This document shows, piece after piece, positions 19,093-48,843 of a DNA stretch of 64,000 nt. The notes beneath the pieces were generated by a model, which worked only from the letters and a program-made list of their open reading frames with translations, ran no database searches and was not told the DNA's origin. Every line of letters starts with the position of its first letter. The stretch's first letter is position 1. The DNA is from Leucoraja erinacea (Eukaryota): the NCBI RefSeq assembly GCF_028641065.1, contig NC_073396.1, forward strand, positions 16,306,001-16,370,000. The letters are read 5' to 3'. Position numbers and translations under genes: made by a program.

Positions 19093-19226
19093 CAGTCTGA
19101 AGAAGGGTTTCGGCCCGAAACGTTGCCTATCTCCTTCGCTCCATAGATGCTGCTGCACCAGCTGAGTTTCTCCAGCATTTTTGTGTACCTTCGATTTTCC
19201 AGCATCTGCAGTTCCTTCTTAAACAC
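19093..19226 (+). mobile_element. Solo Penelope pLTR-derived repeat, young subfamily
   Basis: Nearly identical to the arms at 8596-8871; begins at the CTGAAGA motif. Confidence 0.85.
19097..19124 (+). ncRNA. Putative minimal hammerhead ribozyme core
   Basis: CTGAAGA-A-GGGT TTCG GCCC-GAAAC-GTT: CUGANGA and GAAA boxes, 4-bp stem II with UUCG loop, palindromic ACGU stem III, NUH triplet. Confidence 0.55.
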
Positions 19227-19574
19227 TTTATCTACCATATCAGACTGCTAACTACCATTAACCTGCCACATGAGAAAATGCCATTTTTTAAAGTGAGGCA
19301 AGATTTTTGTTTGACTTGTTTGAATAGGGTAAAGTGAAACAAGTCGGTAAAAAAAACTGTTACTTAATTCTGTTTATTTTTCAGTTCAACAACCGGATGC
19401 ATCCTTTACCAAAGCAGTAGTGTAATTTATTCATGTCTAACTGGCAAAGCAATGATAGCACTACTTTACACATAAAGAAACCTATATCAACCCCTATTAA
19501 AAAAATAACTGATATTTATGTAAAATTCTATTGTCTATTTTCCAGGATAAAGCATTTTAAAGCATTTTTTTTTA

Positions 19575-21035
19575 AAACAACAACTTAAAGCAAATTACAT
19601 TGTGGCTGATGTAATGTACCAAAAGCACCAGTCATTCACCAAGCACCCAGCAATGTGATAATGATTAAATCATCTGTTTTAATAATGTGCAGTGAGAAAC
19701 GGGCAGGATACCAAGGTCATTTCTCATTATAGAAACATAGAAACATAGAAATTAGGTGCAGGAGTAGGCCATTCGGCCCTTTGAGCCTGCACCGCCATTC
19801 AATATGATCATGGCTGATCATCCAACTCAGTATCCCGTACCTGCCTTCTCTCCATACCCCCTGATCCCCTTAGCCACAAGGGCCACATCTAACTCCCTCT
19901 TAAATATAGCCAATGAACTGGCCTCAACTACCCTCTGTGGCAGAGAGTTCCAGAGATTCACCACTCTCTGTGTGAAAAAAAGTTCTTCTTATCTCGGTTT
20001 TAAAGGATTTCCCCCTTATCCTTAAGCTGTGACCCCTTGTCCTGGACTTCTCCAACATCGGGAACAATCTTCCTGCGTCTAGCCTGTCCAACCCCTTAAG
20101 AATTTTGTAAGTTTCTATAAGATCCCCTCTCAATTTCCTAAATTCTAGAGAGTATAAACCAAGTCTATCCAGTCTTTCTTCATAAGACAGTCCTGACATC
20201 CCAGGAATCAGTCTGGTGAACCTTCTCTGCACTCCCTCTATGGCAATAATGTCCTTCCTCAGATTTGGAGACCAAAACTGTACGCAATACTCCAGGTGTG
20301 GTCTCACCAAGACCCTGTACAACTGCAGTAGAACCTCCCTGCTCCTATACTCAAATCCTTTTGCAATGAAAGCTAACATACCATTCGCTTTCTTTACTGC
20401 CTGCTGCACCTGCATGCCTACCTTCAATGACTGGTGTACCATGACACCTAGGTCTCGCTGCATCTCCCCCTTTCCCTATCGGCCACCATTTAGATAATAG
20501 TCTGCTTTCCCGTTTTTGCCACCAAAATGGATAACCTCACATTTATCCACATTATACTGCATCTGCCAAACATTTGCCCACTCACCCAGCCTATCCAAGT
20601 CACCTTGCAGTCTCCTAGCATCCTCCTCACAGCAAACACTGCCCCCCAGCTTAGTGTCATCCGCAAACTTGGAGATATTGCCTTCAATTCCCTCATCCAG
20701 ATCATTAATATATATTGTAAATAGCTGGGGTCCCAGCACTGAGCCTTGCGGTACCCCACTAGTCACTGCCTGCCATTGTGAAAAGGACCCGTTTACTCCT
20801 ACTCTTTGCTTCCTGTTTGCCAGCCAGTTCTCTATCCACATTATCGTCTTCAAAAGTGTGCATTAAATCTTTTGCCTCCATCAAAGAGAGCAGACAGGGG
20901 CTTGCTTTAATGTCTTGCACAAAAGATAATATCCCCATCAGTTAGCACTGGAATGAAGCCTAGATCTTTGTGCTAAAGTTGTTGGAGTGGGAAAATTACA
21001 AACTTTTCATTCAAAGGCATGAGCTCTTCCCAATA
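19575..21035 (-). mobile_element. Ancient Deu-domain SINE relic split by the CR1 at 19730-20842
   Basis: Right part GAGAGCAGACAGGGGCTTGCTTTAATGTCTTGC..GCACTGGAATGAAGCCTAGATCTTTGTGCTAAAG..GGAGTGGGA matches the reverse Deu core and head; left part matches the SINE 3' half. Confidence 0.55.
19730..20842 (-). mobile_element. Young CR1 LINE, 5'-truncated, RT C-terminal half
   Basis: [46 protein letters not shown]; (TTTCTATG)n tail at the left end. Confidence 0.96.
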
Positions 21036-23085
21036 TGATTACTTTATGTGAGTTGATTGCACATTTGTAATAGCCACCACTGTTTTTAGCAGGCTAGCTT
21101 CTGTGAGCTTAATTTGGGCCATATAAAATAGCACAATATGCCTGAGGAACCTCGTTTATGCCGACTCAAACTTGCCAAATGAGTCAATCTTCCCAATACC
21201 AATTCTTACTTAATTGACTAGGTAACACTGTACCAGTAGCTGAAATGTTTCCCCCACCCTGACCTGGGGTCCATGGCAACACTTAAAGCCAATTCATTGT
21301 TCACTCCTCTCTGTATGAAGGATAGCAAAAGAGGTGTCAAAAAAAGGCAAACCATCTGTTGTGCTTCTTTTTAAGAGATAATTTTAGCATCTTTCATTTC
21401 TCTGTTAAGCAATAGCATATGTGGAAAAACAATTTCAAAATTGTTGATTCCGATATTGGCATCACAATTACTGTATCTTGTGGAAGTTTTCAAATATAAA
21501 GGGTGTTGTACCAAGTTTTATCGATGGGTTTTCACAGGAATGCAACAATGACATGGTCCATGTCAAATTTTGCCAAATGTACCTTGGAGTTTTTACTCTC
21601 ATATACATTGGAAACAAGTCATTGTCTTAAAATTATAGTGCACACATTGTTGCAACCAACCAAGATTAAGGTTTGGATATTCCTATGTTCTTTGAGCTTC
21701 TAGCAAGTAGCTATATCTGGACATGCACCAACTGGTCTTGATGACAGTGAGAAAGGTGCTTCTGAAGCCAGGGCTGTGGCGTGAAATTCAGGGAGTGCAG
21801 AAAACAGAAAGAGGCAATATAAGAAAACTTCAGATCAATTTTAGAAAAAAGAAAACACCTGGGCATTTTGAAAAGCATATTCAGCAGTGAAAATGTAAAA
21901 CATTTCTACTGACTGCTGAAGTCCTGTGATATCTTTCAAACTGTAGATTGGAGCCATCACTGTACAAGCTGTACTGTCATCTAGGCTGACATGAAAGAAA
22001 CCCACACAATGTCTGTGCTGAATCTCATTTCTATTACCCAGCACAGCCCACAGTGCTAACAGCAGACTCTTGTCCACATTCACGATACGGGAAAGACAGT
22101 GTTATTGTATTTTAACTGAATTTAAATTACATGTAATAACCTTTTGCACACATCTTCTTGCATGCATGCAAGAAAGCACATCATCGCCAAATATTTAAAA
22201 ATTTAATTTCAATTTTTAGGGACTTTTATGTACTGAAGGAACTTATCTGTGCATGAGGCTGACTAAGCCAGAGACTGGAACATTTTTTTTCACATCACAG
22301 CCATTGACAATATCAAATAACTCGCAAGTCAGACAAATGTGTTGTTCCTCGTGTCTAATAACAATTTAGCATCGATTGCAAAGATCATCCCTCTTGAACC
22401 TATATTGCTTATCCCATTTCTTATTTGCACTATCCTTAATCATCTTTAAAGGTAGATTAATTAATTCTTAACCCACAAATGTGCTGCTGCCTGTAGTCAC
22501 CGCTCCTCTCATCAATATCATTATTGAATAGTTGACGATAAACAAAATTAAATCCTTGCGTTATTAACAACCAAGTCTTGTCTATGTTACAATGAGAGCA
22601 TTGATTGTTGGAGGACTCTACAACAGCACTCGGCTGGAAAGACTTTACCAGTTGGCCGTTGTTATAATTTCCAAGGCAGCATATGTCATCTACAGTTGCC
22701 AGCAAATCTGGCACATTAACAGTATCTATATCTAGAATGAGTTTAATGTGAAGCAGGGAAGAATAGTAAAAGAATCTAAGAGTAACAATATAGTTATGGC
22801 TAAACAGTTTTAATGAAGTATTTAATATGATGTATATGGTTATAACTCACACCTCCAATTCAGTAAACTGTGAAATCTCATCCTGTTCTAGAAACCCAGC
22901 ACATGGTTCTAGGCCAGCACAGCCAGACAGGGCTGGGGAACTACTGCACAGCCAGATGCATCATCTTTCTAATGAGGTAGTTAACAGTTTTCCCTCTCGG
23001 GAAATGGTCTGGGCACCATTTCGCAGAAAAGATGACAAGTTCCCTCCAGTATATTTATTGTGCAGGTAATGTAGCTGTAACAGTG

Positions 23086-23957
23086 GGTCGCCGTTGTGTA
23101 TGGCTGCTCTGCCTGCAGTCCGTCCTTTCACCCTTTTTAAATTTTATTTTTAGTCCTGTTAAAAAGAAAATGTTAGTTGGAGGTCTTCTTTTATGTGGTG
23201 GGTGGGGGGAGGGGAAGGGGGAAACTTTATTTCCTAGTCCTACCTGGTCGGAGAGGCGGCTTCCCTCCGAGCTGCTTCTTCGGCCCTTCCTCGCGGCCTA
23301 CCATCGGACTGGAGCGGCGTCTCTTGTCGGGACCGGCCAGAACCCCAGCTTCGGCGGCGGCGCAGCACTGAAACACCGTCATGGAGCGGGCGATGCCTTA
23401 CCGGGTCGCCGTGCGGTAAGCTCCGGAGTGCTGTGACCGCCGACTCCAACATCAAGGAGCTGCGGTCTGCGGAACATCCAGCGGTGCTGGATTTAAAACA
23501 CCGTGGAGCCTGGGATCTCTCGCCGAGATCGTCAGAGTCCGAGCTCCAACCAGCGCGGCCTGTGGACATCGGGAGCCGCGGTCTCTGGCGAGGTACTGGC
23601 TCTTCCAGACACTCCAAGCCGCTGAGGAGTGTTTCTCCCGACGCCGGAGCTCCATCATCTGGCAAGAGGGCCTGAAAGCATCAGACTGGCTGCGGAGGCC
23701 ACAAATAGGCCCCAACCTCGGTGATCACAGAGGAAGAGGACTTAACTTTCTAGTGCCTTTCCCCACAGTGGAACATTTTGATTCTGCTGTGGGGGACGTT
23801 CATGTTAAATCCTATAATGTGTTGTGTCATTTTTCTTTTGTTAATTTTTCTATGGATGTACGGAAACCTAATTATTTCTTCTATGTAAAGCACTTTGGTT
23901 TCAACGCAAGTTGATTTAAACGTGCTATATAAATAAAATGTACTTACTTACTTACTT
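23086..23957 (+). mobile_element. CpG-rich non-autonomous retroelement with L2-type 3' tail
   Basis: GC/CpG-rich body with no credible ORF; ends TGTAAAGCACTTTGG..GTGCTATATAAATAAAATG(TACT)n; 5' boundary approximate. Confidence 0.7.
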
Positions 23958-24582
23958 GTTTGAGACAACTAGTTGTATCCAATGTTAATTTCACCCCTCC
24001 CTTATTTTAAAAACTATTCCTTGGGTTCAGAGTGAATTGAACCTCTTGGCTATATGAAAAAGAAATACAACAACAACAACAACTCTATACTAAAATCATA
24101 TCAGCACATTTTATGAAGCTCAGTAGGATGAAACAGCCAGGAGAGGAAACTAACTTTGTGAGTTTACAGCATTGGCAAACTCAACATTGTGTGTGAAAAC
24201 ACCTTTATTGAATGGTCAATACATTTTTGTCTAAATAGTCATCCTAAAAGCTCAATTTATTTCAAATCAATGAGTAATCTTCCAAAGGAAGGCAATCCAC
24301 TACCTGAAATCCTAGCTTTAATTGAATCTTACATGGTTAAGCACCCTCACTGATAATCACACACTCTCCTGCATTGATTTTATCCTCTCCACCTTTAATT
24401 TCTGATGCTCTCTGTAAATTTGCAGTCTTGACATCAGAACAGATGCTGCTTAACACCCACTAGCCTACCAATTTTTTTCTGACTTATCTTTAGATTGCAT
24501 GAATTAAATCAAAACTCGTATCTAAAAACTTTTATCAGCTCATTGCTAGGCACTTAAATGAACCTTAGTACTGCAGTACTAA

Positions 24583-25357
24583 TGGGCCTGTCCCACTTAG
24601 GCGATATTTTCAGGCCACTGCCGGCGATTGCCAAGTTGCTGGCAGTCGACTGAAAAACCAGCAACTGGAACGGCGACTGTCAAGAGTCACATCGCTTCCT
24701 TCACCAGCCTGTTATGCAGGCGGAGGACAGGGCAAGCGGGGGGAACGCTGTCTGAGTGAAAAGCCAAAGTGATACAGACACGATGAACAGGAAGGTTGGT
24801 GCTGTAATTAAGACGGCTAAAGCACACAATACGATAAGCCCTTTAAAAGAGGGGGAGAGATGGGAAGGAGAGGGGGGTGAGAGGGTAAGTAGAGGGTGGG
24901 GAAGGGAGGAGAAGGAGTGGAGACAACTTTTAAGAAGCCAGAGATACACGGCTGTGAAGTTGGGCAGACATTTAACATTACTGGTTGGTTATCCTTGGTT
25001 CTGAAAAATATTGCTTACGTTTTTTTTCCCCAATGAGTCAATGAAATTCGTCGGTCAGCACCAGCTAGAATCTACGAGAACCTTCGACCTCCTGGCAACC
25101 CACTAGGACCAGCTGGCGACCCACCCACGGCACGAGGAATCTCGCTGCTCTTCATGGCGGCTTCATTCCAGTCGCCGTTAATTTTTTAAAACATGTTGAA
25201 AAATTTGCGGCGACCATAATGAGGCCGCAACTGGTTCCCAGAATGTGGGAACTCTTCACGACCATGAAGGCGACTCCCCGGCAACAATCCGCGAATATGT
25301 GGCGACTGCATAGTCTGCTGCAGTCGCCTAAAAAGTTGCCTAGGTGGGACAGGCCCA
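24583..25357. mobile_element. PIF/Harbinger-type MITE, copy 2
   Basis: TAA|TGGGCCTGTCCCACTT..GGTGGGACAGGCCCA|TGA; internal homology to copies 1 and 3. Confidence 0.88.
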
Positions 25358-26179: not shown

Positions 26180-27367
26180 CCGTGCAGAACGTTGATTTCA
26201 TTAACTTTACCACCAACTTCCATCTTACCGTCACATTTATTTTGACTATCTCTGACAGCTCTCTCCACTTTCTTGATCTCTCCTTCTCCATCACAGGGAC
26301 CGACTATTGACTAACATCTACTACAATCCACTGACTCCGATGGTTTATACTTCCTCCCGCCCTGCTCATGCAAAGACGCTATCCCCTACTCTGAATTTCT
26401 CCGTCTCTGATGCATTTGCTCCCAAGAGGACATTCTCCACCCTCCACCCCCACCACCAGACGGAACAATGATAGTTCCCCTGGCCCTTACCTTTCACCCC
26501 ACCAGCTGCTGCATCCAACACATCATTCTCTGACATTTCTGTCATCTTAAACATGATCCCACCACCAGTAACTTCCCATCTTCCCATCCCCATCCCTTTC
26601 TTCTTCCGCAGAGACCGTTCCATCCACAACTCCTTGGTTCTCTCATCCCTTCCTACCCAACTACCCCCTTACCAGGTACTTTTGCCTGCAACTGCAGGAG
26701 ATGTAACACCTGCCCTTAAACCTTCTCGTTCGCATCCATCAAAGGACCACAGCAGTCCTTCCAGGTGAGGCAAAGGTTCATGTGCACCTCCTCTTATCTC
26801 ATCTACTGCATTCAGTGTTCCCGATGTGGTGTGACCTCCTGTACGTTGGCAAGACCAAGCATAGACTGGGAAATTGTTTCGACAAATATTTATGCTCAGT
26901 CCGTCAAAGCCTGCTGGATCTCCCAGATGTTAACCCTTTTTACTCTCCTTCCCATTTTCATCCTGATCTTTCTGTTCTGGGCCTCCTCCACCGCCGGAGT
27001 GACCCACATACAAATTGGAGGAACAGGACCTCACATTCTGCCTGGGTAGCTCACAATATAGTGGTATTCACATTGATTTCTCCAGTTTAGGTAAGTAACC
27101 TATAAACAACTTTTCATCTTTGGTCTATAGCCAACCATCTACCTATCAAAAACAACCCTCACGTATCGCCAGAATTTGTCCTGCTCCTCCTCTCTTCCAG
27201 CTTTCTCGTGCCCCCCCTCCCCCCCTCCCACCCCCACCACAAGTCTGAAGAAGGGTCCCAACCCAAAACAACACCTATCCATGTTCTCCAGAGATGCTGC
27301 CTGACCTGCTGAGTTACTCCAGCACTTTGTGTCTTTTTTTTAAAACCAGTATCTGCAGGCCCTTGTG
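26180..27367 (+). mobile_element. Penelope-like element: RT C-terminus, GIY-YIG endonuclease remnant and 3' pLTR
   Basis: NFTTNFH..ISDSSLHFLDLS (RT thumb); FMCTSSYLIYCIQCSRCG and LYVGKTKHRLGNCF (GIY-YIG); 12-bp TSD TCTCCTTTAAAC at 26168-26179 and 27368-27379. Confidence 0.9.
27245..27272 (+). ncRNA. Decayed hammerhead-like core in the Penelope 3' repeat
   Basis: CTGAAGA-A-GGGT CCCA ACCC-AAAAC; GAAA has become AAAA, consistent with CpG decay. Confidence 0.4.
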
Positions 27368-27709
27368 TCTCCTTTAAACTTTGCCGCCCTTGCCTTAAAG
27401 CTATGCCCTCTAGGTTCTGGCATTTCCTGCCTTGGAGAAAGGTTCTAACTGCCTACCTTATCAATGCCGCTCAACATTTTATATGTTTCTATCAGATACC
27501 ACTAATTCTCTGTCATTCAGTTTGTCCAACCTCTCCTAGTAGCTAATGCCCTCTAATCCAGGCAGCATTCTGGATTCTCCGCCCTTCCTACAAGCAGAAG
27601 TGCACGCAGCAGCTGAATACGGCCTAACCATAGTCTTATAGATGCTGACATCATGACTTTTATACTTATTGCCCTGACCGATGAAGGCGAGAAGACCATA
27701 TGCCTTCTT

Positions 27710-27960: not shown

Positions 27961-28417
27961 ACCCAACTCTACACCTGTGCCACGCATGTTACTCAAGGCG
28001 TTTATGTTAGTCAGGAAGGTTTACCATTTTAACCACACTATCTCTATGTGTTGTCACTTTCAGGTAGCTATGGATCTGGACATCAAGATATTCTTCACAT
28101 CAATGCTGTTAAGGCACTTTCATCACCCAAATACTTTCAACCTAACATTTGACTTTCCAAAGCACATCACCTCATACTTGCTCAAATTAAATTCCATCTG
28201 CCAATTTTCCACCTATTTCTGAGGCTGATCTATGTTCTGCTGTATACTTTTGACAGTCATCCAACCGTCCACAACTTCAGCAATCTTGGTGTTATTTGCA
28301 AACTTACCAGCCAATCGACATTCATATCTAAAATATAGACACAAAAAGCTGGAATAACTCAGCAGGTTGGACAGCAACTCTGGAGAAATCTCTGACCCAC
28401 TCAGTTATTTCTGACTC

Positions 28418-31921: not shown

Positions 31922-32190
31922 AGACCACAGATGTTGGAGTCTGGAGTAAAAAAAACTGCTGGAAGAACTTGTGTAAGATGGAAATGCAGATGTTGGTTTA
32001 AACCGACTATTTTCTAATATTGCGTCTATCAAACTCAGCGGGACAGGCAGCATTCTCCCCAGAGATGTTGCCTGTCCCACTGAGAGACTCCAGCTTTTTG
32101 TGTCTATCTGCTGGAAGAACTCAGCAAGCTGGGCAGCATCTGTGGAGGAAAATGAACAATTTGGGTTGAGACGGTTCCTCTGGACTGAAG
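31922..32190 (-). mobile_element. Penelope pLTR copy with a second, hairpin pLTR copy inserted (31970-32107)
   Basis: CTGCTGGAAGAACT duplicated at 31956-31969 and 32108-32121; insert has inverted arms GGGACAGGCAGCAT / ATGTTGCCTGTCCC. Confidence 0.75.
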
Positions 32191-32571
32191 GGAAGGGAAA
32201 TTAGCGAAGGATTAGAGCATTTATTTATGAGGAGTTTGTCTGGTCTGATCTGTCCAAAGTGCAAGGACTTACATATTTTCTACTGCGAGTCTTCCCCAGA
32301 TTACGAACATCGAACTAATGTATGGCCTGCACAAGACCTGCAGTCATGTGCAGGGATGGATCTGCGGCCTGCTGCAGGGCTGCAGTCATCTTCTGCTATG
32401 TAGGAACTCAGTTCACGGCCGTATTTGCGAACTGTCTGGGTTACAAGCAGTTCTCAGGAATGGAACCCTAGTATAATCTTGTACCTAATCATAACTGACA
32501 CACATGCAATGGGTCTCATCAGGTTTGGGTAGGGTACCTGGACTCTGCTGAAATATACAGTTTAAGCAAAA

Positions 32572-32767
32572 AAAAACAGAATGTTAGAGGAATTCAGTGG
32601 GTAAGACAGTATTGATGGTATGGCCGGGACAGGTTTTTGTATCGGGTCCCTTCTTCAGACCAAACGTTGGCCATCCATTCCCTCTACAGATGCTGCCTGA
32701 CCCGCAGAAATCCTCCAACACTCTGTTTTGCTCAAGACTCTAGCATCTGCAGTTTCTTGTGTCTCCT
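32572..32767. mobile_element. Inverted pair of Penelope pLTR copies
   Basis: Minus copy ending GGTCCCTTCTTCAGAC abuts a plus copy starting AAACGTTGGCCATCC..GATGCTGCCTGACCCGC. Confidence 0.7.
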
Positions 32768-33415: not shown

Positions 33416-36400
33416 TATTTGTGTTTTTCTGTCCTCTCTGCTCTTTCAATCTTTCCGTGGTGCTGGTCACCCAATTTAGAGATATGAACGTTGGGGAAAC
33501 CATCAATGGAATGCTATGTTCAAGGCCTGAGCAGACAATAACTTAATAGTCTCTGATGTAAAACATTAACTGTTTCTCACTCCACAGATGATGCCTGATC
33601 AAATGACTACCACCAGCATTTGCTGTTTATATTTTAGATTTCCACCATCTGCAGTGTTTTGCTTTTCAATGACATGCTTATCACTGGACTCAATCTTCAT
33701 TTACTGAACTTTTCATATTTTCTTCTTTTTTACAGTCTTGCCCTGCACGCAGAGTAACTGGAGGCAAAAACTCAAACCAGACTATTTCCAACAAGAGAAT
33801 GGAAATATAAAAATTACGGTGAAGAGTTCTGCGCCAGAGGAAACTGATTCTAAAAATACATGCTCTACCCCTCCCTCTTTCTCTTGGGTATACCAGGTCC
33901 AGCTTGAGCCCTCGCCGTTAACAGGTTTGGGCAGATTAAAGAGCACTCAAACATAGAGAGTCAGGAAACAGTAAAGAACTGTTAGCCTGGCCATTTATAT
34001 GAGTGTCTCCTTTGGGCACCATTAACTGCAACAAATAAAGAGAAAGCCCAGAGCCACCTGCATGTATCTACATTTTAACCTGAAACTAGAGGAGCCAAGC
34101 GAGGATCAACGTGCTGCTGTGAAAACAAACATAAATCAGGCCCTGCAGCTTCAGTGTGCTGAGCATCTTCTTGTATAACTGAAGCTTGGAAATGAGTACA
34201 TGAGTATTCAGCACTAAGCCTCCTTGCTTGTTCATTTCAGGCTTGGAAGCTTCATACAGCAAATTCACTGATCCCCATTGGCATGCACCCACTATCTCTG
34301 AATGTCCACGGGAACAAACCTCCAGGTAAAAAAGTCTAGGATAGTCCCTCAAGCGCCAACGTAGATTTGATGAGCTTAAAATAAAATTAGAGCTATGCAC
34401 CTTTTGTTTAATTTGACAAGAAGAACAGCCACAAATTTGATAAGATCAATCAATTATTGTAACATGACTCTTAGATTAAAATGTTCAATTTATGGCACAG
34501 GAATATTACAATATTGTAGAATGTCACGAATGCTGTAATTTTCCATAAATGTAATTACATGCCTGCATTGGAAAGGCTTTGTTTTTGTTTAAAAAACACT
34601 TCTTTGTGCAGACTTTTTGATACAATGTGTTGAGAAATTGACTGTTATTAATTTATCACACTGATGAAAGGCAGAAAAGCTTATAGTGAGTATCTTCATT
34701 TCCTTTTACATTACGAATCGCTCAGACTTGGTAATGAATAGACTATCGACTCAAAGGTTTTTATTCATCCCCCAGTGATCAAAGTCAGGTTTGGCATTTA
34801 TAGCATCAATTACGTAGCAATTTCTCATGCATTTTGTTAAAAAAAATGGACTATTACTTGAGAATTCCCAGGCTCTGCGAAGTTAGTTCTACACCTGGCT
34901 GGCAATTCCAAGTTTCCTAGCAAAATGGAACGGTGAAATTATCAGCAGCAAATTTTAATGCAAACCATGTGTCTTTCTAACAAATTGCACCAGCTCCTAT
35001 CAGAGATACCTTGCTACATCTCATTTGGTTTCCGTGAAGTGAAACAAAATACGAGTCAGCCGGGTCCTTGGGACTTTTAATTTATTTTTATTAATACTGA
35101 CTAAAGGATTACTTCAGGGCCCAAGATTAGTCACAGGCTCTTCAGTAAATTGTGTCAGAACTTCATCCTCTCAATTAGCTCGGCCCTGTACAGACAGCAG
35201 TACAGCAATACTGAACTATGGTCCATCTTTTAGAATGTAAGAAAACATGGTGGCTAATGTGCATAGTAAAAAAAATGTGAAAATGGCCTGATAACCGGGA
35301 GTGGTTTAGATGTGAAGAGATATCATAGGATTATTTGAACAGTTAGCAATGAACCACATTAAAAACAAGGCTTAGGAAGGATGATATGGCCTTGGTTTCA
35401 TCTCTCACTTGAAAGGTAGCATGTCGAGCGTGTTTCTCGGAAATCATAATAGTAGGAGTGGGGCAACTGAGAGAAAGAGCTGCATTGAATAAAATATATT
35501 CTACTTAAATAGTTGGGGTTCTGGGACGAAGAGAGTGTGGTCCATTGTCATTAGACTTCAGGATGAAAAAGAACAAAAATCTCAAAGCAGTGATGATAAT
35601 AGTGTCAACAAAATTAAAACAGATAGGGAGAGTTTTTAAGGGGAGAACTCAAATGCAGCAGATGAAAAATGTCTTGGGTGTTTAACAGTAAACTGGTGTT
35701 TCTCTCTTGTTTAGATGGGGTAGATAGGTGGGAAAGAGAAACAGGAAACACCAGAGGGTTAAGAATTATACAGAGGACAAAAAACATTGACATAAAGGAG
35801 GAAACTAACCATTCTGGGAACAACTTCAAAACTAAAAGAGGGATGGAGGGATGGGAGTTTCACTTCACTTGAGGTCAAGAATATCATGGAAAAAGAAGTA
35901 GAAAGAGTGAAGTTATTAAAGCTGAGATGTGATACCCAACGGAGAGAATGAAGAAAATAAGTCTTTGAAGAATGAGTTGATGTCCTTGGATTCTTTCAGT
36001 CCTAAATGGGCATTTATTAGACTGCCAATCAGATCCAATACCGGACTTGACCTCATGAATATCATGTGAAGGGAACAAGCAGATTGAGTTTCTGTGGGGC
36101 TGTTGTCTCTAAAAATGTAATAATGTGGAGCTGCCATGTTTACTGTCCCTCCAGAGGTTTTATTTTGTCCACAACCTACTTGCCACATCACAATTAATCC
36201 TGATATTTTCATAATAGCTCAGTTCCTGAGCATCTGGAGTGTAAGGGGAATTATGGTGGAACCTTCCCCAAATCTCTGTGCTGTCTTCTCAAGTTTTCTC
36301 AGCTGTCTTTATTTACTGGGCAGATTTGTGGGAATGAGTGTATTAGCATCACAGCTATGCAGTAGATATGTAGAGGTTTACACCAAAATAAAGTATTTAA

Positions 36401-36722: not shown

Positions 36723-39111
36723 TGATCTGACAAGCAGAACCTAAAAGAAAATTGATTGGGTCATTAAACAAAATAGTCTTTTGTCATTTTCGTATCTGTG
36801 TTATCACAAAGTTCACCTCTCTAACACTGCTCAGTCCTGACTCTCCTTCACCTCAGCTGCTGCTTATGCCCAACTTAGTTATCTCCAGAACTGATATTTT
36901 ACAGGACTCTTGGCCAGTGCCCCTCATTTTATTCTTCATAAGACCGAAATCACAGCGAACACAGCAGGAATGTTGTGGCTCATGGCAAGTCTGTGCCGCA
37001 TTGGCTCCTGGTTTCAAAGTTTTTACTATTCCAATCTCTTGATAGATTTTCTTTGTAACTTCCTCCAATCCGGTATCCCCAAAATGTCCATGCTCCTTCA
37101 TATCTGATTTCTTGCTTATCTCAGAATTTTACTCCTCCGTCTTCAGCTGCTGAGATTCCAAGCTCAGGCCCTGGTGCCAGGTTTCGACACGTGCTGCTCG
37201 AGCTGCTGTGTTTCTCTAGCAGAATGTTTTATGCTCCAGGTTTCATTCCTTTGCCTCTTTTCTCCTTGAAGATGGTCCTTCAAACCAAGCTTTTCTTCAT
37301 ATGTGCTAATACCTGGCGTCAATAAGTTGCTTGATAATTTCCCAAAGCATCATATTTTTGTTTCATTAGAGTTGCTATATAATGGAAGCTGTCACCTTCA
37401 TGATAAAACCTTTGGAAAGACACTTAACAAGTGGCATTAACTCTGGGTACATATTATGCACTGAAATACCTTTCCTTTTTGCACATCTACATTATTTTGA
37501 CTATTCCTGGAAAATTAATTGCACAAAACATATGCAGATGGCCTTCTAACCTACTAAAGCTATAGTATCGCTTACAACAACTGAATGCTACTTTGTGCAG
37601 ATAGGATAAATTTTCACAAAGTGAGGATCATGCACGATTGGAAATAATTGAACTTGATCAAGTGGGGGAGAGATGGAGGGTGTGCACAATACTGGTGAAA
37701 GGCTGTGTCAGTGTTTTGGCTAACAAATGGGTTAACTATTTGGTTAACTAATGCTGGAGATATAATGAGTTTGCTTCTGGTGTAGGATAACTCATCATAT
37801 CCGTCAGTATTCTAGTCTTTATTTTGGAAGAGTACTAATATTAAACCAGACCTAATAGTCTGAATGGTTTCATTTGGTGCTATATTTCATTCTGTGGTCA
37901 AAAGATAAAAGTATAACTTTGTATCAATCCGAACAACTTTACGAGAGTTGTAGCCATTGCACTCACACAGCTGAGCAGAGTTGCGTATGATAAGTTTTAA
38001 AATTATTTTGTTTCCAAATTATTTTGGAAAATTAGTTCTTCAACTTGAAATGTTAACTTTGTTTCTCTTTCTACAGATGCCGCCTGAGCTGCTGATATTT
38101 CCAGCACTTTCTGTTTTTACTCCAATCTATTTTGTTTCTCTCCTTAATTTCTTTCCAGCAAATATATCATCCATGTGCTCAAGGCTACTGCATCAGCATT
38201 CCGTGAAACATCACACACACACACCTCCACATGACATTAGATTTCATAAAACAATGATTGGGCAGAAAAAGGTAAATACCAACTGAGGGACAGATGCTTA
38301 ATTCAGCAGTGTTGTTTCACCTGGAGCTAATAATATGATGGAATGAAAAAGCCTCAAGTTTTTTGGGAATCTATGCGTCTCTTATCAGTATTCATTCGTT
38401 GTCCTAGCACTCAACGGAACAACGGTAATTTATTTCTGCAGATACCTGATATTTGCGCGTACTCTCTCTTTCAAAACTCATTTACAATTCAAGCTGCCTT
38501 GCATCATTTATCATTAAGTGCTGTATTGCTATTTTTATTGTTGAAATCTTCTGCAAATTATCCTTTTCGCACAACGAAATAGACTGATAATGGGAGTTTA
38601 AAAAATGTTGTAATTATGTTAGTGTCATCTCATTCCACCTTTAGGCATGATAATATGCTGCCTGTCCCATGGCAGAAATGAAAAAAGCTCATAAACGTGC
38701 ACATTATTGTTACATAAATTAGGATTAGTAAGCACTCTGTGTTGGGACTACAATACTTGAAGCTTCAGGCTGAGGGAGATCACTGTTGCAACAGCTGTGT
38801 CGTCTGTGAAAACAGAATCTATTCACCAATGCTTGCAGTTCTGGTTTACAATGCTGGAAGGCGTATTCAGAAAATGGTTAATGTTCTCATTAAAAGCTTC
38901 AGGACATCCCCACTAATAGACATGGAGAGACATTTCATGCGTGACACCACCATCTCATTTTTTTGTGTGTCCAAATCACATAGTTCTGATATGTTGGGGT
39001 TTCATGTGGTCTATATTGATACTTTCAATGTTTCTCACAAGCTTTTACATTTCAGTTGTTCATGGTCCCGAAATTTGATTAATTTGAGATTGAATCATAC
39101 AAAAATGTCTG

Positions 39112-42100
39112 CATAGTCATGCAGCATGGAAACAGGCCCTTCGGCCCAACTTGTCCACACTGACCAACATGTCCCATCTACATTAGTCCCACCTGCCTGG
39201 GTTTGGCCTAAATCCCTTTAAACCTATCCTATCCATATACTTGTCTAAATATTTCTTAAATGCTGCAACACTACTTGCCTCAAATACCTTTCATGGCAGC
39301 TCGTTCCATACATCATCTACTCTTTGAGTAAAAAAGTTACACAGGTTCAAATTAATCTTTACCCCCTCATCCCATATCTTCTGGTTCTCAATTCCCCTAC
39401 TCTTGGAAGAGACTCTAGCGTTTACCCGATCTATTCCTCTCATGATTTTGTACACCTCTATAAGATCGCCCTTCATAGACTTGAACGACTCGCAAAGAAA
39501 TCATCTCTCACAGTCCACCTTGAAGCTTACAAACTCCACCTCACTGACTACAAAGATGCCCTCATTGCTGCAAAATCTGCCTACCTCTCCTCCATATTCA
39601 CCGATCCCTGCCAAAACCACAGAACTCTCTTCTCCACAGTGGGCAACCTCCTCAAGCCTCGAGCCAACACTCTCCGTACCTCTACTCCGGATCTCTGCAA
39701 CTCATTCCTCCACTTTTTTGCTGATAAAATCAGCACCATCTATCAATCTTTATCCCCTGTACCCGACTCCCCAGCATCTACTCCACCACCTACCAAGGCC
39801 CCTCCTTTCAACATCTCCACTGACCTCCTTACCCCTCCTCCACACTGCTTCCTCTCCCAGTTTGACCTGGTCACCCCTATTGAAATCTCCAAACTCATCA
39901 GCTCTTCCAAACCCACTACCTGCTCCCTCGACCCTCTCCTCACTCCCCTGCTGAAGTCCTGCCTCCCCGTTCTCTGCCCCTACCTCACTAATCTCTTCAA
40001 CTCCTCATTGTCCCAAGGAATTGTCCCCTCCGCTTTCAAAACTGCTGCTGTTACACCAATCTTAAAGAAACCTGGTCTTGATCCCTCCTCTCTCATTAAC
40101 TACCACCCAATTTCAAACCTCCCCTTTCTTTCAAAAACCCTGGAGCGTATCGTTGCGTCGCTACTTCATTCCCGCCTCCTTGCGTATAACCTACTTGAAT
40201 CCCTCCAATCTGGCTTTCGCCCCCTCCATAGCACAGAAGCTGCTCTCCTCAAAGTCCTCAACGACCTCCTCACCTCTGCTGACACTGGTTCCCTCAACAT
40301 CCTCATCCTCCTCGACCTGAGCGCAGCCTTCGATACAGTGAAACATAACATCCTGCTCATCAGACTCAAAGACCTCGGCATTGAAGGCTCTGCACTCAGC
40401 TGGCTCCGTTCCTACCTTTCCAACAGATCCCACTTCATCTATCTCCACAACCACACCTCTGCTACAGCCACAGTCACTCAAGGCGTTCCCCAAGGCTCCG
40501 TACTCGGCCCCCTCCTCTTCATCATCTACATCCTCCCCCTTGGTCAGATACTCCGCCACTTCAACCTGGACTTCCACTGTTACGCTGATGACACCCAGAT
40601 CTAACTCGGCACCAAATCCCCCCACAACCCCCCCCCCCCCCCCCCCCCTCATATCAACCCCTGTTTGTCAGCTATAAAAACCTAGATGCAACATAATTTC
40701 CTCAAACTCAACAGTGATAAGACGGAATTCCTCCTCATAGGCTCCAAAGCCACACTCAGCAAAATCAATAACCCCACTCTCACCATCGACGGCACCACTG
40801 TCTCCCCATCTCCCCAGGCCCGCAACCTTGGTGTGATCTTTGATTCCTCCCTCTCCCTTGAGCCTCACATCCGCCATGTCATTAAAACCTCCTTTCATCT
40901 CCGCAACATCGCCAAACTCAGACCCTCTCTCACACCTCCTGCTGCTGAAAGACTCATCCATGCCTTCATCTCCTCCCGACTGGACTACTGCAACTCACTT
41001 CTCCTTGGCATCAGCTCCACCTACATCAACCAACTCCAACTCGTCCAGAACGCAGCCGCCCGACTCATCACCCACACCAAATCCTGGCATCACATCACTC
41101 CAGTCTTCAAACAACTTCACTGGCTTCCCATCTTCCACCGGATCAACTACAAAATCCTGATCCTCACCTACAAAGCCCTCCACCATCTGCCCCCCCCATA
41201 TCTCACTGACCTCCTCTCCCCCTACCAACCCTCACGGTCCCTCAGATCCACATCAGCCGGTCTCCTCTCCATCCACAAGTCCAACCTCCGCAGTTTTGGG
41301 GACAGAGCGTTCTCCAGGGCAGCTCCCAGGCTCTGGAACTCCCTCTCCCAACTGATCCGCAATTCCGTGTCCCTCACCATCTTCCAGTCCCGCCTCAAGA
41401 CCCATCTCTTCACCTCTGCCTATCTTTAGCCCCACGTCCCCCTCCCTTTTCATCTGTGCTTGAATTGCCTCATATTGTGTTTTGTATTGAATTCTGTCTT
41501 TACTTTGTGTACTAGTCATGTCTCTACTATTTATTTAATTCCCCTTACATGTTTTTCCTCTACCTGCTAAATTTTGTAAGGTGTCCTTGAGTCTCTTGAA
41601 AGGCGCCCATAAATAAAATTTATTATTATTATTATCCTCCTACGCTTCGTGGAATACTTGCTCAACCTCTCCCTATATCTCAGGCGCTCGAGTCCTGGCA
41701 ACATCCTTGTGAATCTTCTCTGCCCCCTTTCCAGTTTTACACCATCTTTCCTATAACATGGTGCCCCAATACTCTAAATGTGGCCTCACCAATATATTAT
41801 ATAACTGCAACATGACCTCCCAACTTCCATGCTCAATATTCTGACTGATGAAGGCCAACGTGCCGAAAGCCATTTTGACCATCCTATCTACTTGTGACGC
41901 AGCATTCAAGGAGCTATGTACCTGCATGCCTAGATCCCACTCTCCCTACAACACTCTCTAGAGCCCTACCATTCATTGTGTAGGTCCTGCCCATGTTAGA
42001 CTTTGCAAAATGCAACACTACACATTTCTCTGTACTAAATTCCACCAACCATTCCTCAGCCCACTTTCCCAACCGATCAAGATCTTGCAGCAATTTTTGA

Positions 42101-42200: not shown

Positions 42201-42468
42201 AGTCATTTCATGCCATGTTATAGCTTGATAAAATATTGTCATTGCCAACCTTTTTAGCATCCCTTTCAATGCATCTACTTTTCACTTTTCACACATCGTG
42301 GCACCAAGTTACACACTCAAACCTTCTGACACAGTAGAAAATAGTTTTTTTTTTAAATAAAGTCAGTTGATACCTGAATATATTTAGCACTCTACTGGTT
42401 GAAGAGAAGTGCTTCTTACTGAATTACCAGGACAAAGCAGATACCAGCAACATTAACAGACAAAGAAA

Positions 42469-42600
42469 CAGTCTGAAGGAGGGTCTCTACCCGAAACGTC
42501 ACCTATTCCTTCTCTCCATAGATGCTGCCTCACCCACTGATATTCTCCAGCATTTTTGTCTACCTTGGATTTTTCCAGCATTTGCAGTTCTTTCTTAAAC
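42469..42600 (+). mobile_element. Solo Penelope pLTR-derived repeat
   Basis: Same layout as 19093-19226. Confidence 0.85.
42473..42500 (+). ncRNA. Putative minimal hammerhead ribozyme core (one box variant)
   Basis: CTGAAGG-A-GGGT CTCT ACCC-GAAAC-GTC; perfect 4-bp stem II and GUC triplet; A9 position is G. Confidence 0.45.
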
Positions 42601-43164
42601 TAAACGTCTAATTCTAAATGTTACGTTTACTCTCCTGGTCTTACACTTTCAAAAATAGTCTCTCTGTTCCACCACCCCACCCCCATCTTTTCTACAACTG
42701 AAAGCTAACCTGTTTCTCTCTTTCCCAGTTCCGACAAAATGTCATCCGGCAAATCTATCCCACCGCTCTCCCAAATGCTCGATCATATCTATGGGCAGTA
42801 CTTAAATCAGGCATCATCAGCTGTGGAAGATCTGTAGAATGCTCAAGGTCAGACATCAATATAGCAAGACATCTTTAAGCCTATACTTAAACTTTTTTCA
42901 TAATAAAATCCAACATATCATTAGTCCTCCTGATTGCTTGCATCCCCTGCACAGTTCACATAGGGTCCTTTGGAAGATGTTAATCTTCAGTCTGTCATCA
43001 TTTAAATACCAAAATACAACACTTGATCCTCTCAGCCAAATTGTTGACATGAATTGTGAATAGGTGGGATTCAAGCAGCAGCGCTTGCAGAATCTGACTA
43101 GTCATGGCTGCCACGACAGGAATACCCTTTTCCCATTCTTTAACCAGTTCTCAGTCCATGCAAT

Positions 43165-43304
43165 GGAGTGGGAGATTGCAACCTTCACGTGGTCCGCCCT
43201 GTTTCAACGAATGCAATCAACCTGGCGTGCGCAATCAAATAAGATCAAATAGAACAAGTTGTCCTACAACTTTGGGCTGTGCACACAATACGCAAGAAGA
43301 AGTC
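43165..43304 (+). mobile_element. Short retroposed 3' end with (AAG)n tail and TSD
   Basis: GTCCATGCAAT at 43154-43164 and 43305-43315; ends ACGCAAGAAGAAG. Confidence 0.75.
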
Positions 43305-43457
43305 GTCCATGCAATATAACATGCTAATTCCACGAGCTCAAACCATGTCGATCAACCTGCTGTGTAGGACCTTATCAACAACCTTCTGAAATTGTAAATA
43401 CATCATGCCCACTGGTTCCCCTTATCTATTCCATTTGTCGTTTCTCAATATATTACT

Positions 43458-43627
43458 CAAATAACTTGGAGGAGCTCACTGGGTCAGGCATCTTCTGAAG
43501 AAGGATCCTGAACCAAAAAGTCCTCTGTCCATTTCCTTCCACAGATGCTGCCTGACCTGCTGAGTTCCTCACGCAATTTGTTTTTTCCCCCTCAAGGTTC
43601 CAGCATCCACAGTTTCTTGTTTCTCTA
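43458..43627. mobile_element. Penelope pLTR copy with short inverted 5' arm
   Basis: GAGCTCACTGGGTCAGGCATC, then CTGAAGAAGGATCCTGAACCAAAAAGTC..GATGCTGCCTGACCTGCTGAGTTCCTC. Confidence 0.7.
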
Positions 43628-46397
43628 GACAAACATGATGTCATTTTCATCAATCTGTGCTGACTGACCAATTCTAATGTTTTACAAGATGAAATGTTAC
43701 TACGTCGGGAGAGGGGGTCAAATTTTTCCACTTTTCAGTCTACTAGAGCCTTTCAAGAAACTATCGAATGTTGAAGCATGATAACTAGTGCATCCACTAA
43801 TTCTAGAACTACCTCTTTTATAACAGGGATGTAGATCTTCAGGCTTTTGTGATTATTTCCCTTTTAGTCTCACCAACTTCTCTTGTATTCTTTAAAAAAA
43901 ACGCAGCTCTTCTCTTCTCACAATACCTTGGGTTCTTTAGTATTTCTGGTATTTGTTTGTGTCTGGCTTCAAGGAAGGCCCCTTTAGAACAAAATAGTCG
44001 ATTTAGCCTCTTCCCTGCAATATACTAGATTGGAAACAGCCTTTTTGTCTTATCAGTTCTCCAACGTATTGACATAGAACATCTAGTGTACCTTCCAAGA
44101 GTTCATCCTACACATTAATACTAATTTGTCTTCTCCAGTATCTACACAGATTGCAATCCTCCATGGTTACTATATTAACCCTGTTACATGCCCTTTCAAT
44201 TTCCCAATTTAAGTCTTGCCCAATAATAGTACAGGTAATACAATTACTATTCTAAATGATTTTCACCAATGTTTACTGCCCATTGCTGTTTCTTAGCTGC
44301 ACTCAAACTGATTTACTTGATAGCCATGGCTAGATCACGTTTCCTGTTGGGGTTTTTTCTTGCCTTGAAGAGAAATATATTATTTGTGAACCATGTATCA
44401 ATTCGTTAAAACCTACCTGTTGCTTGCTTTCTGAAATACCCTTCAAAGTGCATCTTCTGTCACAGTTAATTTACTCTCAATTGGGGACAAATAAATCGTC
44501 AAATGAATCTGAAATACTGGATGTTAAAGGCCATGCCAAATTGTTAGGATAGCCACAGGAGTGTTTCACTGGTCAGGAATTATTAGTGCTGCACGTATGT
44601 ATGCAAGAAAGATCAATTTCTATCAGGTTTTATTGAGCATTACAGGGAAATGACAAATAATAGTATTTATACTCCTAAAGAAATTGATGATACTTGGCAT
44701 TAACTGAAACATACAGAAAGAAGTGGGAGAATCAGTAGTATTCGGAACAAAAGAACATGAATGTTTCTTCATATGGCAACCTTCCAGCCATTGTATGGGA
44801 GGACAAATGTTCACCTACTCTATGTAAAATTGTAACGTATAATAATGAAAGAATTTTTCACAGTTACCCTATTGTATGCTCTGAACAAACAACTACATCC
44901 TTATCCAATCTCCTCTACCTCATATTGTGGATCTCATCTTTAAAATAATCAAACAAATGCATAAGCACTTATGCTAAAAAAAGTCAGAAAAAAATGGCAG
45001 TGAAGACGGGACTACTATAAAAATGATTTACCTACTAAGTTTTTAATGGAGTCTGAAAATAAATTTATGAAGGATCACAAACCATCCAAATTCCATTGCA
45101 AACTAGGCAGAACTCAAACTGTGAGGTTACCAGGCAAAAAGTTTAAAGTTCTTGTTTCTTGCTGTTGTTGCTGCTCCCCGCCCTTCTGTTCCCTCTCTCA
45201 CTCCTCCAATAATAAAAGCAGTAGGTAAATGTCGATATCTGGCACTTTTAAGAGCTAATTTGATTAGATGTTTGGCACATAGATTTTTGTGGGCGGGCTG
45301 GTCTGCCTCACTGACAAGGATTCACATCAGCAGGGGTTCTTATGGGGAGGATCAATGCAATGTAAGATTGAATTCAATTTGTATGTCAGCAGTCTGCAAT
45401 CACCAAGAACTACTTATCAGGGTGAGTTTCAATACATTGTTGTATCAGCTCTTGCCGATGGTCACTACTTCTGGTCAAAGATGTTTGTTTGTTGTCTAGG
45501 ATTTGTTAACGCCTTATTGAACTTCAAGACACAAGAGTCCACAGATATTACAAGACATTACATAAGGCCAGTCCACGATACAAACTGTGTAAGTGGAGAA
45601 AAATGATATAGAAAAATATCTGGCCACAATGATATGGGGAATATGGGATTAAAATAGATGTAAAAATACTTGCTGTTCAGACTTGGTAGGACAAAGGGCA
45701 TGTTTTTTGTACTGTATGTGGCTCTATGACATTTGAGATGTTAAATTTTCACCTAAATTCAAGACATTTTGGGAGATCCTTGACCAAGGAACAATATCTC
45801 ATCAAAGGGTTAGTCAGTAAAGCAAAGGTGGCCTTGTCTGAGATATGCAATTTCATAGAAGCCTTAGCCATACAGCTGGAAGACTCCTGGTTCCTACGTG
45901 CTCAGCAGCCATTTGTAGAATTATGTAGCTATTCCTTGCAAGCTAACAGCATAAATGGTGCCAAGTACCATGTCCTTGGCTCTGTACCTGTAAACCTCTT
46001 CCAGAAAATGACTATACAACAAATCTTATTAACAGGATTGAGCTATGCCTATCTCCAACAGCTAATCTTGCTGAATAAAATGAAATTCAAGGCAAGTGTC
46101 TTAACAAAGGCACTTATTGAAGCTTTACCTTAACACTGGTGAATAGCTGAGAATGGCATAGTTGACGCCAGCTTGGCTTTTGCCAAACAATAAAGGCATT
46201 TTACTCTCATTTCATTGCATTTAGTACCAATTGTGTGCTCCTACCAGTGTCCCCTACTCCCATCAATCATGTGTTTTTATTGCATTGGGTCCTGCTCCAG
46301 CTGAACCTCACTTGTATTTGTTTACAAGTCATTCTATATCTAACTATGTAACTGCCCTCCAGTTCCACAATTCTTTGAAATCTCTGCAATGATCCAT

Positions 46398-46450
46398 TTC
46401 TGAAGAAGGTTCGCAACTCAAAACATCACCCATTCCTTCTCTCTAGAGAG
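46398..46450 (+). mobile_element. Truncated pLTR copy with decayed hammerhead-like core
   Basis: CTGAAGAAGGTTCGCAACTCAAAACATCACCCATTCCTTCTCTC. Confidence 0.6.
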
Positions 46451-46639
46451 AGAGATCATAAGATCACACGTGATAGAAGTAGAATTAGGCCAACGTGGGC
46501 TGATCTATCTCTCCCTCCAAACACCATTCTTCTGTCTTCTCCCCATAACCCCTGATACTAATCAAATCCCTTTTTATTTAATGTAGAGTGCAGTATGTTC
46601 AGATGAATTACTATGTTAAAAGGGCTATACTGTAGCATG

Positions 46640-47765
46640 TTTTATGTAAAGAGGGTAACTAACAGAGAAAAGGGTCCCTCAGAAACCAAAGCGGTCATCT
46701 ATGTGTGAAGCCATAGGAGAAGGGCAAGTTTCTCAATGAGTAATTCTCTGTTTTTACCGTGGAGAAAAACCTGAAGGCTATGGAACTTGGGACAGATAAT
46801 GGAAATGACTTGAGCCCAGTCCTTATCAAGGTTGAGGTAGTGCTGGGTGTCCTAGGGCATATGAAGATTGATAAATCTCCCAGGGCTGATCATGGCCTGA
46901 TCAAATATATCCAAGGACACTGTGCAAAGCAAGAGAAGAAATTGCAGGAACCATGGCTGAGATACATGATTCATCATTAGACAATGGTGAGATGTCGGAT
47001 GACTGGAGAGTGGCTAATGTGGTGCCTATGTTTAAGTAGGGCTGCAAGGAAATAGACCAATGAGTCTGACATCTGTAGTAGGTAAGTTACGGGAGAGGAT
47101 ACTGCGGGATACGACATATATACATTTGGATAAAAAGGGGTTGATTGGGGATAGTCAACATAGTTTTGTACATGGGTGGTCATGTCTTAAGAATTTCATT
47201 GAGTTTTTTGAAGAAATAACCAAAAAGGTTAAGCCATAGATACTGTCCAAATGAACTTCAGCAAGGCCTTTGATAAGGTTCTGCATGGTACATTGCTCTT
47301 GCAGATTAAATCGCATTTAATCCAAGGAGAGCTAGCTAATTGGATACATAATTGGCTTCATAGACAGAAGCAGAGGGTGGTGGTGGAACGGTTTTTTTTC
47401 AGACTGGAGGTCTGTGACTAGTGGTGTGCCTCAGGGATCAGTGTTGGGCCCATTGCTGTTTGTATTTATATCAACAATTTGGATGAGAATATGTGAGGCA
47501 TGATTAGTAAGTGTACAGATGTACAAGTGCACGGAAGTAAACAGTATTGTAGACAGTGAAGATGGGCTGAGGAATGGTCAATGGAGTTTAATTCAGATAA
47601 GTGCATATTGCATTTTGGGAAGTCAAACCAGTGAAGGACCTTCACAGTGATTTATTGGGCCCTGGGGAGTATTGTAGCACAGAGGGATCTATGGGTACAG
47701 GAACATAGTTCCCTGAAAGTGGTATGCGATGATCAAGAAGGCCTTTGCTGCATTGGTTTTCATCT
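46640..47765 (+). mobile_element. Old CR1 LINE RT region
   Basis: [44 protein letters not shown], with many stops. Confidence 0.85.
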
Positions 47766-48027
47766 GACAACTTGGTTATATCTGGTCACTCCCCTCAAGT
47801 TAATACAAACAGCAGACAGCGGCATGCTGTATCTGTTGATTTTCATTATAATCTGTAATTTCCTCAAAATACCAAAACCAATTGAACAGAAATATTCCAA
47901 ATCACGCGAGAAATATGACATTTCATATTTACCAAGGCTCATTTTAAATTGGGACGCAGAAATTTCAGGAAGTCCGAAGAGTGAGAAACATTGCAAATTT
48001 GTTCAGAACAAATGTTATTGTACAATT

Positions 48028-48700
48028 GTTGGGCAGATGGGCTGAAGAATGGTCGATGGAATTTAATACAAAGAAATGTGAGGTGTTGCATTTTGGGAAG
48101 TCTAACATGGACAGGATCTACACAGTGAATGGCAGGTCTCTGGGGAGTTTGCAGGGCAGAGGGATCCAGGAGTGCAGGTACATAGTTCATTGAAAATGGC
48201 ATCACAGGTAGATAGGGTGGTCAAAAAGGCTTTCAGCACATTGGCTTTCATCAGTCAGAATACTGAGTATAGAAATTGGGAGATCATGATGCAGTTATAT
48301 AAAACGTTGGTGAGGTTGCATTTAAAGCATTGTGTTCCATTCTAGACACCTTGTCATAGGAAAGATATTGTCAAGCTGGAAAGGGTGTAGAGATGTTTTA
48401 CGAGGATCTTGGGGGGAATAGATCCGGTTAATGCACAGAGTCTCTTACCCAGAGTAAGGGAATCGAGAACCAGAGGACATAGGTTTAAGGTGAGGGGGGA
48501 AGAATTAATACAAACCCAAGGCGTAACTTTTTCACACAAAGGGCGGTGGGCATATGGAATGAGCTGCCGGGGGAGGTAGTTGAGGCAGGTATTATCACAA
48601 CGTTTAAGAAACATTTAGACATGTATATGGATAGGAGAAGTTTAAAGGGATATGGGCCAAATGCACGCATGTGGAACTAGTGTAGATAGGACATGTTATT
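48028..48700 (+). mobile_element. Old CR1 LINE 3' part
   Basis: RWAEEWSMEFNTKKCEVLHFGKSN; SRTRGHRFKVRG; GGATATGGGCCAAATG 3'UTR. Confidence 0.85.
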
Positions 48701-48749
48701 ACTGAGAATCATAGAAAATGCATGAAACTATTCTTAATATGTAAACAAG

Positions 48750-48843
48750 AAACAAGCTGCTGGATAAAACTGAGCAAATCAAACAGCATCTGCGGAGGGA
48801 AATGGACAGCCAACGTTTCGGGTCAGGACCCTTCTTCAGACTT
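48750..48843 (-). mobile_element. Solo Penelope pLTR-derived repeat
   Basis: CAGCATCTGCGGAGGGAAATGGACAGCCAACGTTTCGGGTCAGGACCCTTCTTCAGAC. Confidence 0.8.
48812..48839 (-). ncRNA. Putative minimal hammerhead ribozyme core
   Basis: Minus strand CTGAAGA-A-GGGT CCTG ACCC-GAAAC-GTT; both catalytic boxes intact, perfect 4-bp stem II. Confidence 0.55.

Follow-up and report, generated by a model that had tools for sequence, protein, structure and literature searches.

We analysed a 64,000-nucleotide stretch of the Leucoraja erinacea genome (contig NC_073396.1, positions 16,306,001 to 16,370,000, forward strand; hereafter the window), which carries many copies of a dispersed repeat with a motif resembling a minimal hammerhead ribozyme. 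Judged from its sequence, this repeat is the 3' end, that is the pseudo-long terminal repeat (pLTR) plus tail, of an autonomous Penelope-like element (PLE) encoding a reverse transcriptase (RT) and a GIY-YIG endonuclease (EN), likely of the Neptune type. The short copies, which by extrapolation number about 1 million in the genome, are likely by-products of the element's own copying, in which the RT would begin at either of two internal sites and, for the most part, halt close to the front edge of the hammerhead, with the latter uncut. We put the probability of this reading at roughly 0.8.

An initial annotation of this DNA had proposed an origin of the repeat in Penelope pLTRs, and this origin was confirmed: the short copies match the pLTRs of long elements with RT and GIY-YIG at 94-99% identity across the entire copy, and contain no sequence of their own. 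The short copy at 19094..19224 (+), which consists of pLTR and tail and belongs to the youngest subfamily (TTCG loop), is 94-96% identical to the pLTR of the long elements L106 and L073. In L073, and in most of L091-L110, the repeat is part of a partial tandem in which a 3' fragment, the untranslated region (UTR), the repeat and the tail are followed by the ATG, about 165 nt downstream of hammerhead position C3. It is this layout, together with the identity of the 19097 copy to the pLTR within it, that points to the repeat being the end of an autonomous element. The window holds the remains of such an element. A frameshifted 3' piece of a Penelope-like open reading frame (ORF), comprising the RT end, the linker and GIY-YIG, lies at 26182..27083 (+) (tblastn with the L073 protein, E 9e-58; blastp, E 8e-15); it is followed by a 3' UTR at 27091..27243 (+) and by the pLTR end of the same element at 27242..27371 (+), with the broken ORF end directly upstream of the repeat copy at 27245. 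A search with the matching piece of the ORF returned 20 loci, and in 18 of them an exact core lay about 120 nt past the ORF end, in 17 cases on the ORF-matched strand.

The young long copies are 97-99% alike, with open frames of up to 689 aa that contain RT and GIY-YIG. The 689-aa frame of L073 scored 29.8 bits against RVT_1 (cut-off 29.6), and its GIY-YIG match (E 0.005) fell below the cut-off for that family. Upstream of GIY-YIG, in the RT-EN linker, we read by eye a Cys motif, C-x4-C-x2-C. Since a Zn-finger-like Cys motif in this linker defines the Neptune clade, as set out in the relevant part of Craig et al. 2021 (PMC8557442), the element is likely of the Neptune type. With the Neptune-type, EN-bearing PLEs described there it shares the single ORF with RT and C-terminal GIY-YIG, the Cys-rich linker, the partial tandems, the inverted 5'-truncated copies (here 36 of 149 are inverted) and a tail of 30-40 nt. 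Unlike them, it has a long Pro-rich N-terminal region and an extreme excess of end copies of 100-135 nt.

The very high copy number that had been claimed for the repeat was also upheld. A 29-nt pattern of the core gave 47,215 exact matches in the 2.19 Gb genome and 0 in the control. In a genomic sample of 34 stretches of 10 kb (340 kb, at fixed positions on the 17 largest contigs), a second profile gave 170 matches, about one per 2 kb and equal to 4.7% of the DNA, with a control of 0. Extrapolation would give about 1 million pieces of the repeat genome-wide, a figure in which inverted pairs are counted twice and for which the sample is perhaps unrepresentative. Copies measure 100-135 nt and fall into discrete classes of some 95 and 130 nt. 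Cervera and de la Pena 2014 (PMC4209133) described minimal type I hammerheads in the pLTRs of metazoan PLEs, and the copy number found here is far above the 4,000-9,000 given there for Xenopus and coelacanth genomes; the results and discussion of that study do not mention cartilaginous fish, which may be listed in its supplements.

The 3' ends of the copies gather at two positions separated by about 35 nt, with 56 of 196 matches ending at model columns 101-110 and 63 at columns 131-140, in agreement with the 30-40 nt tail reported for PLEs (PMC8557442). By analogy with Poseidon of Anolis carolinensis, for which the portion of Frangieh et al. 2024 (PMC11167929) drawn on here describes internal RT starts, uncut RNA as template and protein-assisted cleavage, these two ends would be RT start sites. 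Our element shares with Poseidon the two 3' end positions matching the tail, the hammerhead kept intact in insertions and the absence of RNA ends at the cut site. The Poseidon ORF starts in stem II, whereas here the ATG lies well downstream, and the 5'-end hot zone at the hammerhead described below is not among the features given for Poseidon in that portion of the paper. We also considered whether the ends of the copies are defined by cleavage, and rejected this: around the cut site (columns 31-40) only 8 of 196 matches start and 3 end. The RT would instead work on uncut RNA from one of the two internal sites, typically halting near the front edge of the hammerhead.

At the 5' side we compared 149 core-bearing copies, 30 of them chosen by pattern. 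Upstream of the core, 69 had unrelated DNA, joined within about 6 nt of C3, 36 an inverted copy, 41 the native UTR and 3 a tandem unit. Target-site duplications of at least 9 nt were found at 10 of 54 testable copies, against a mean of 0.12 after shuffling. Genome-wide, nested exact counts for the youngest subfamily fell from 45,142 at position +8 to 24,385 at 0, 20,211 at -2, 13,471 at -4, 10,328 at -6 and 4,931 at -10. About 89% of young copies thus end within 18 nt (+8 to -10) around C3, with a loss of 7-18% per base that is steepest from -2 to -4, compared with a sequence divergence of 0.9% (14 copies).

This zone could be read in three ways. The sequence TCAGT might act as an initiator, in which case the short copies would be run-off products of the upstream pLTR; we take TCAGT to fit the initiator consensus. 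Alternatively, the TCAG/CTGA repeat or the hammerhead fold may cause the RT to stop or fold back, and several inverted pairs are centred exactly on the zone. Finally, the pyrimidine tract plus CAG may be a splice acceptor, as in Drosophila virilis. We favour a template end combined with fold-back, a step that we infer. Donor-like sites at the ORF stop and acceptor-like sites are present in several subfamilies, and the 3' UTR at 27091..27243 is itself a candidate intron, with GTAAGT at the ORF stop, a pyrimidine tract and AG immediately 5' of the core, a layout repeated in other copies. A pattern of the junction type gave 4 genomic matches, not clearly precise splices, and in the youngest subfamily, to which this comparison applies and whose donor sites are weaker than those of some other subfamilies, no such joint was among the RNA joints listed; with only these 4 matches, spliced genomic copies were rejected as the source of the zone. 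A +30 promoter element overlapping ACGT was likewise unsupported, since the old and the young subfamilies differ in this spacing by 2 nt. In L074 (2.2 kb, 98.5%), L071 and L072, young Penelope copies are present as long inverted duplications, a large-scale form of the fold-back pairs.

Several observations weigh against the origin by interrupted self-copying that we prefer, or against parts of it. Among the 54 flank-joined copies, 40 lack a duplication of at least 7 nt. The 5' zone is broad and does not resolve to a single base, and the loss is still high from -6 to -10, unlike what a strict start at -3 would give, although upstream sequence variants confound this stretch. No RNA 5' ends were seen at the zone in 3'-type and polyA libraries that possibly come from other species. 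A 3' splice site would fit the bases of this zone too, and in the Penelope of D. virilis the intron reaches to helix I and is preceded by the start site (PMC2377424, PMC4209133). It may also be that short copies are copied again in trans, and the Neptune label rests on motifs, not a tree.

Re-copying in trans is central to a different proposal, in which the short copies form a separate non-autonomous family, SINE-like (short interspersed nuclear element) or retrozyme-like, with short transcripts of its own and mobilized by the Penelope protein. We consider this improbable. The two discrete length classes fit such a family, as do the target-site duplications that short copies have of their own, their abundance in RNA reads and their large excess over ORF-bearing copies, only 4,931 of 45,142 reaching -10. 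The part of a preprint on non-LTR retrozymes used here (Li et al., 10.64898/2026.07.22.740005) moreover makes the case for a pLTR origin of animal retrozymes, and these retrozymes share with our repeat the type I hammerhead, the relation to pLTRs and the lack of coding sequence; one chondrichthyan was sampled in that study. Retrozymes are defined by two or more units in tandem, each with a complete hammerhead, whereas the copies here are dispersed monomers or inverted pairs: an upstream tandem unit was present in only 3 of the 149 core copies, and the tandem in the window (8700-8878) has no 5' box. An independent SINE-like family would have a distinct sequence or lineage, and what we found, by sequence identity only, was 94-99% agreement with autonomous pLTRs and nothing unique to the short copies; three subfamily types also occur with native UTR upstream. 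The separate non-autonomous derivative that the initial annotation had postulated is therefore not supported.

The motif itself matches the minimal type I hammerheads of PLEs, including the palindromic stem III (ACGT), as had been suggested. Its extra base after A9, G10.1-C11.1 pair and palindromic 15.2-16.2 positions are all features that PLE minimal hammerheads show in the sections of PMC4209133 on their structure, as are the location in pLTRs, the extra base falling there between 9 and 10.1, and the occurrence mostly as solitary copies, some nearby on opposite strands. The extra A, which had been listed as a caveat, is thus a conserved feature of the class. Helix I has 2 bp in the young subfamilies, in keeping with the initial annotation, and 4 bp in an old subfamily; a 2-bp helix I is shared by the D. 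virilis variant, other PLE minimal hammerheads having 4-5 bp, and helix II has 4-5 bp here versus 6-8 in the Schistosoma and Drosophila cases described (PMC4209133). A covariance-model check had been proposed, and an Rfam scan of the window gave no hammerhead family match at E<=10. Four copies had been singled out as the best. Two of them indeed retain stem II, the ACGT palindrome and the two boxes, namely those at 19097 (+; intact core 19097-19124, predicted cut after 19124) and at 48839 (-; copy 48721..48842, intact core 48812-48839), the only fully intact cores in the window. The cores of the other two are broken, by G at A9 in the pLTR-plus-tail copy at 42470..42601 (+; the 42473 copy) and by A at G12 and loss of GUH in the 27245 copy.

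A variable loop over a conserved stem II had been pointed out, but among these copies it does not speak for selection. In the unbiased set, 96 of 115 loops are CTCG, TTCG, CCCG or their CpG transitions; the CCTG loop of the 48839 copy and the CCCA loop are decay products of CCCG, and CTCT is one change from CTCG, so that the loops are mostly CpG decay of three parents. We then compared ten non-CpG core columns with control columns in the 65 of 196 rows spanning the region. The majority base was kept in 606 of 646 core positions (93.8%) and in 1973 of 2126 control positions (92.8%; P=0.43), and the excess conservation of the core, whose absence across subfamilies, together with a lack of cleavage, the initial annotation had named as grounds for refuting its proposal, was not found among inserted copies. 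For G12 the rate of decay is that of ordinary CpG sites (74% versus 75-83%), and the fully intact core survives in 15 of 196 matches of the unbiased set. Since core and control are conserved alike, G12 behaves as other CpG sites and the loops follow CpG transitions, we conclude that inserted copies decay neutrally.

The consensus sequences tell of the source elements. CUGANGA, GAAA and UH are the majority letters in all subfamilies, and every subfamily majority keeps CUGANGA, GAAA, ACGU and H17 while N7, the loop, its length and the identity of H17 vary. A genome search with N7 = U gave 2,190 matches, mostly point mutants of young families. The old subfamily was represented by 35 exact pattern matches, with 17 of 29 distinct loci in register; it keeps the boxes, has U or C at N7, a stem-loop II of 13 nt and a stem I of 4 bp. 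Covariation was assessed on 17 hand-picked rows, 9 of them old, the search pattern having fixed the 3' side of the old rows. In this set 7 rows have G-C and 6 have U-A at pair 2.2-1.2, which amounts to one evolutionary change, and 81% of cells pair, a value reached by 0 of 500 shuffles and compared with 18-48% in slid controls; the number of covarying pairs in these 17 rows did not exceed that of shuffles (454 of 500). The kept boxes and the paired change in stem I are suggestive, and only that, of selection on source elements. The ribozyme would then likely be maintained in source elements only, with cleavage that is likely slow and occurs as a dimer or with the element's protein. In the old-subfamily loci L149, L150, L158 and L165 a pyrimidine tract plus CAG stands directly 5' of stem I, with a branch-point-like CTAAC in L158; this putative acceptor-like motif is common to old and young subfamilies.

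It is possible, if doubtful, that in the young subfamilies the motif is a non-cleaving vestige, kept for a role as promoter, splice acceptor or protein-binding site. It would agree with this that stem I, which has 4 bp in the old subfamily, has been reduced to 2 bp, that the region of the 5' box is predicted to pair with pyrimidines further downstream, and that downstream blocks of the repeat vary no more than the boxes do. Set against it are the consensus letters just described, with CUGANGA, GAAA, ACGU and H17 retained by all subfamily majorities amid changes around them, and the equally short helix I of the D. virilis Penelope (PMC4209133).

Much more would follow if the intact dispersed copies were active. 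Tens of thousands of minimal hammerheads, transcribed within host RNAs, could cut host pre-mRNA as intermolecular dimers through ACGU pairing, or when folded by the element's protein; we regard this as very improbable. The numbers are there, about 47,000 copies having exact boxes and the ACGT palindrome, and so are transcripts, 22,814 of 17.6 million reads from one RNA run falling on the 1-kb element end; PLE hammerheads, moreover, cleave at a low level as dimers in the experiments covered by PMC4209133. RNA depth was maximal on the repeat and dropped by a factor of at least 100 on the 5' ORF, the pattern that read-through of dispersed copies would give. Intact cores are confined to 15 of the 196 sampled copies, and G12 is not spared from CpG decay; the copies are mostly solitary, and in short ones the outer strand of the 2-bp stem I is missing and replaced by random flank. 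Folding predicted a stem II probability of about 0 in 3 of 6 contexts, both intact window copies included, and alternative dimers 8-13 kcal/mol more stable than the model of stem II plus ACGU, which omits stem I. Cleavage of host RNA by lone copies is unlikely. RNA read starts and ends did not pile up, at the cut site or elsewhere, in what is a weak test with ill-suited libraries, maybe from related species, and no host gene was identified in the window among 148 of 210 unmasked frames scanned, one of which had a weak match, below cut-off, to a domain of unknown function. In L106 (1000-1300), reads on the ORF end were strongly strand-biased in three raw-read runs, and those on the repeat itself were balanced in one run.

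Within the window, a profile built from seven of the eight positions named in the initial annotation gave 33 matches at E<1, of which 26 also passed E<1e-3, and none when the window was reversed. The repeat was present as described at all eight positions, and many matches lie outside 19093-48843. At 8596..8878 is a complex insertion made of an inverted copy (8714-8596, -), a copy at 8700-8785 (+) and a tandem copy at 8787-8878 (+), all without the 5' box and with a 9-nt direct repeat at 8587 and 8875; microRNA matches at 8650-8765 in the Rfam scan were dismissed as a product of this fold-back pair. Decayed copies comprise a head-to-head pair at 32545..32765 (32660-32545, -, and 32657-32765, +), a copy at 43494-43626 with a short inverted piece upstream (43467..43626, +), one at 12659..12780 (-) whose GAAA box is gone and one of 51 nt at 46399..46449 (+). 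The decayed copy at 33558..33663 (+), with TTAAC after the GAAA box, is of an older subfamily, and those at 38044-38121 (+) and 8339-8408 (-) resemble it. The profile search added partial copies at 49574-49670 (+), 53805-53901 (-), 54800-54896 (+), 15462-15572 (+), 28333-28386 (-) and 1023-1120 (-), a cluster at 31971-32180 and a partial fold-back pair at 55178-55288.

Other elements were also found. A fragment of a long interspersed nuclear element (LINE) with an RT domain (RVT_1, E 7e-27) lies at 39249-41429 (+), presumably of the L2/CR1 kind, and a frame at 6324-6992 (+) that matches Pfam ALKBH8_N (E 1e-11) is, we assume, a LINE end and not a host gene. Three copies of another dispersed repeat, 61-86% alike, occupy 9487-10109, 24810-25331 and 59585-60218. 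An 89-nt stretch occurs twice at 100% identity (52364-52452 and 57134-57222), ending in a (TTGTA)n run, and its copies are likely two very recent short insertions. Another retroelement, which we take to be DIRS-like, has two long frames on the reverse strand of L074 (8080-9998 of the reversed locus), and the second of these frames is RT-like.

PLE pLTR hammerheads, solitary copies, tails and inverted ends have already been published. Among the papers listed by literature searches none dealt with this repeat family in cartilaginous fish, and the family may be catalogued in Repbase or Dfam. The present analysis contributes the genome-wide curve of copy ends, the explanation of the loops by CpG decay and an old subfamily whose stem I is longer. 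Cutting of host RNA by lone copies, if true, would matter much more: of known vertebrate genomes this would be the one most densely loaded with ribozymes, and they would exert a real force on its gene structure; the evidence leans against it. The value of the repeat lies in its scale, about 5% of the sampled DNA, and in the record that it keeps of a transposition cycle about which little is understood. Young insertions, in the tens of thousands, have two 3' ends in common, and they share a single narrow zone at the 5' side where a fold-back repeat and motifs like an initiator and a splice acceptor coincide with stem I of the hammerhead. Because near-intact ORFs exist, the sites at which the RT starts and stops, and a possible switching-on of the ribozyme by the element's protein, are directly testable.

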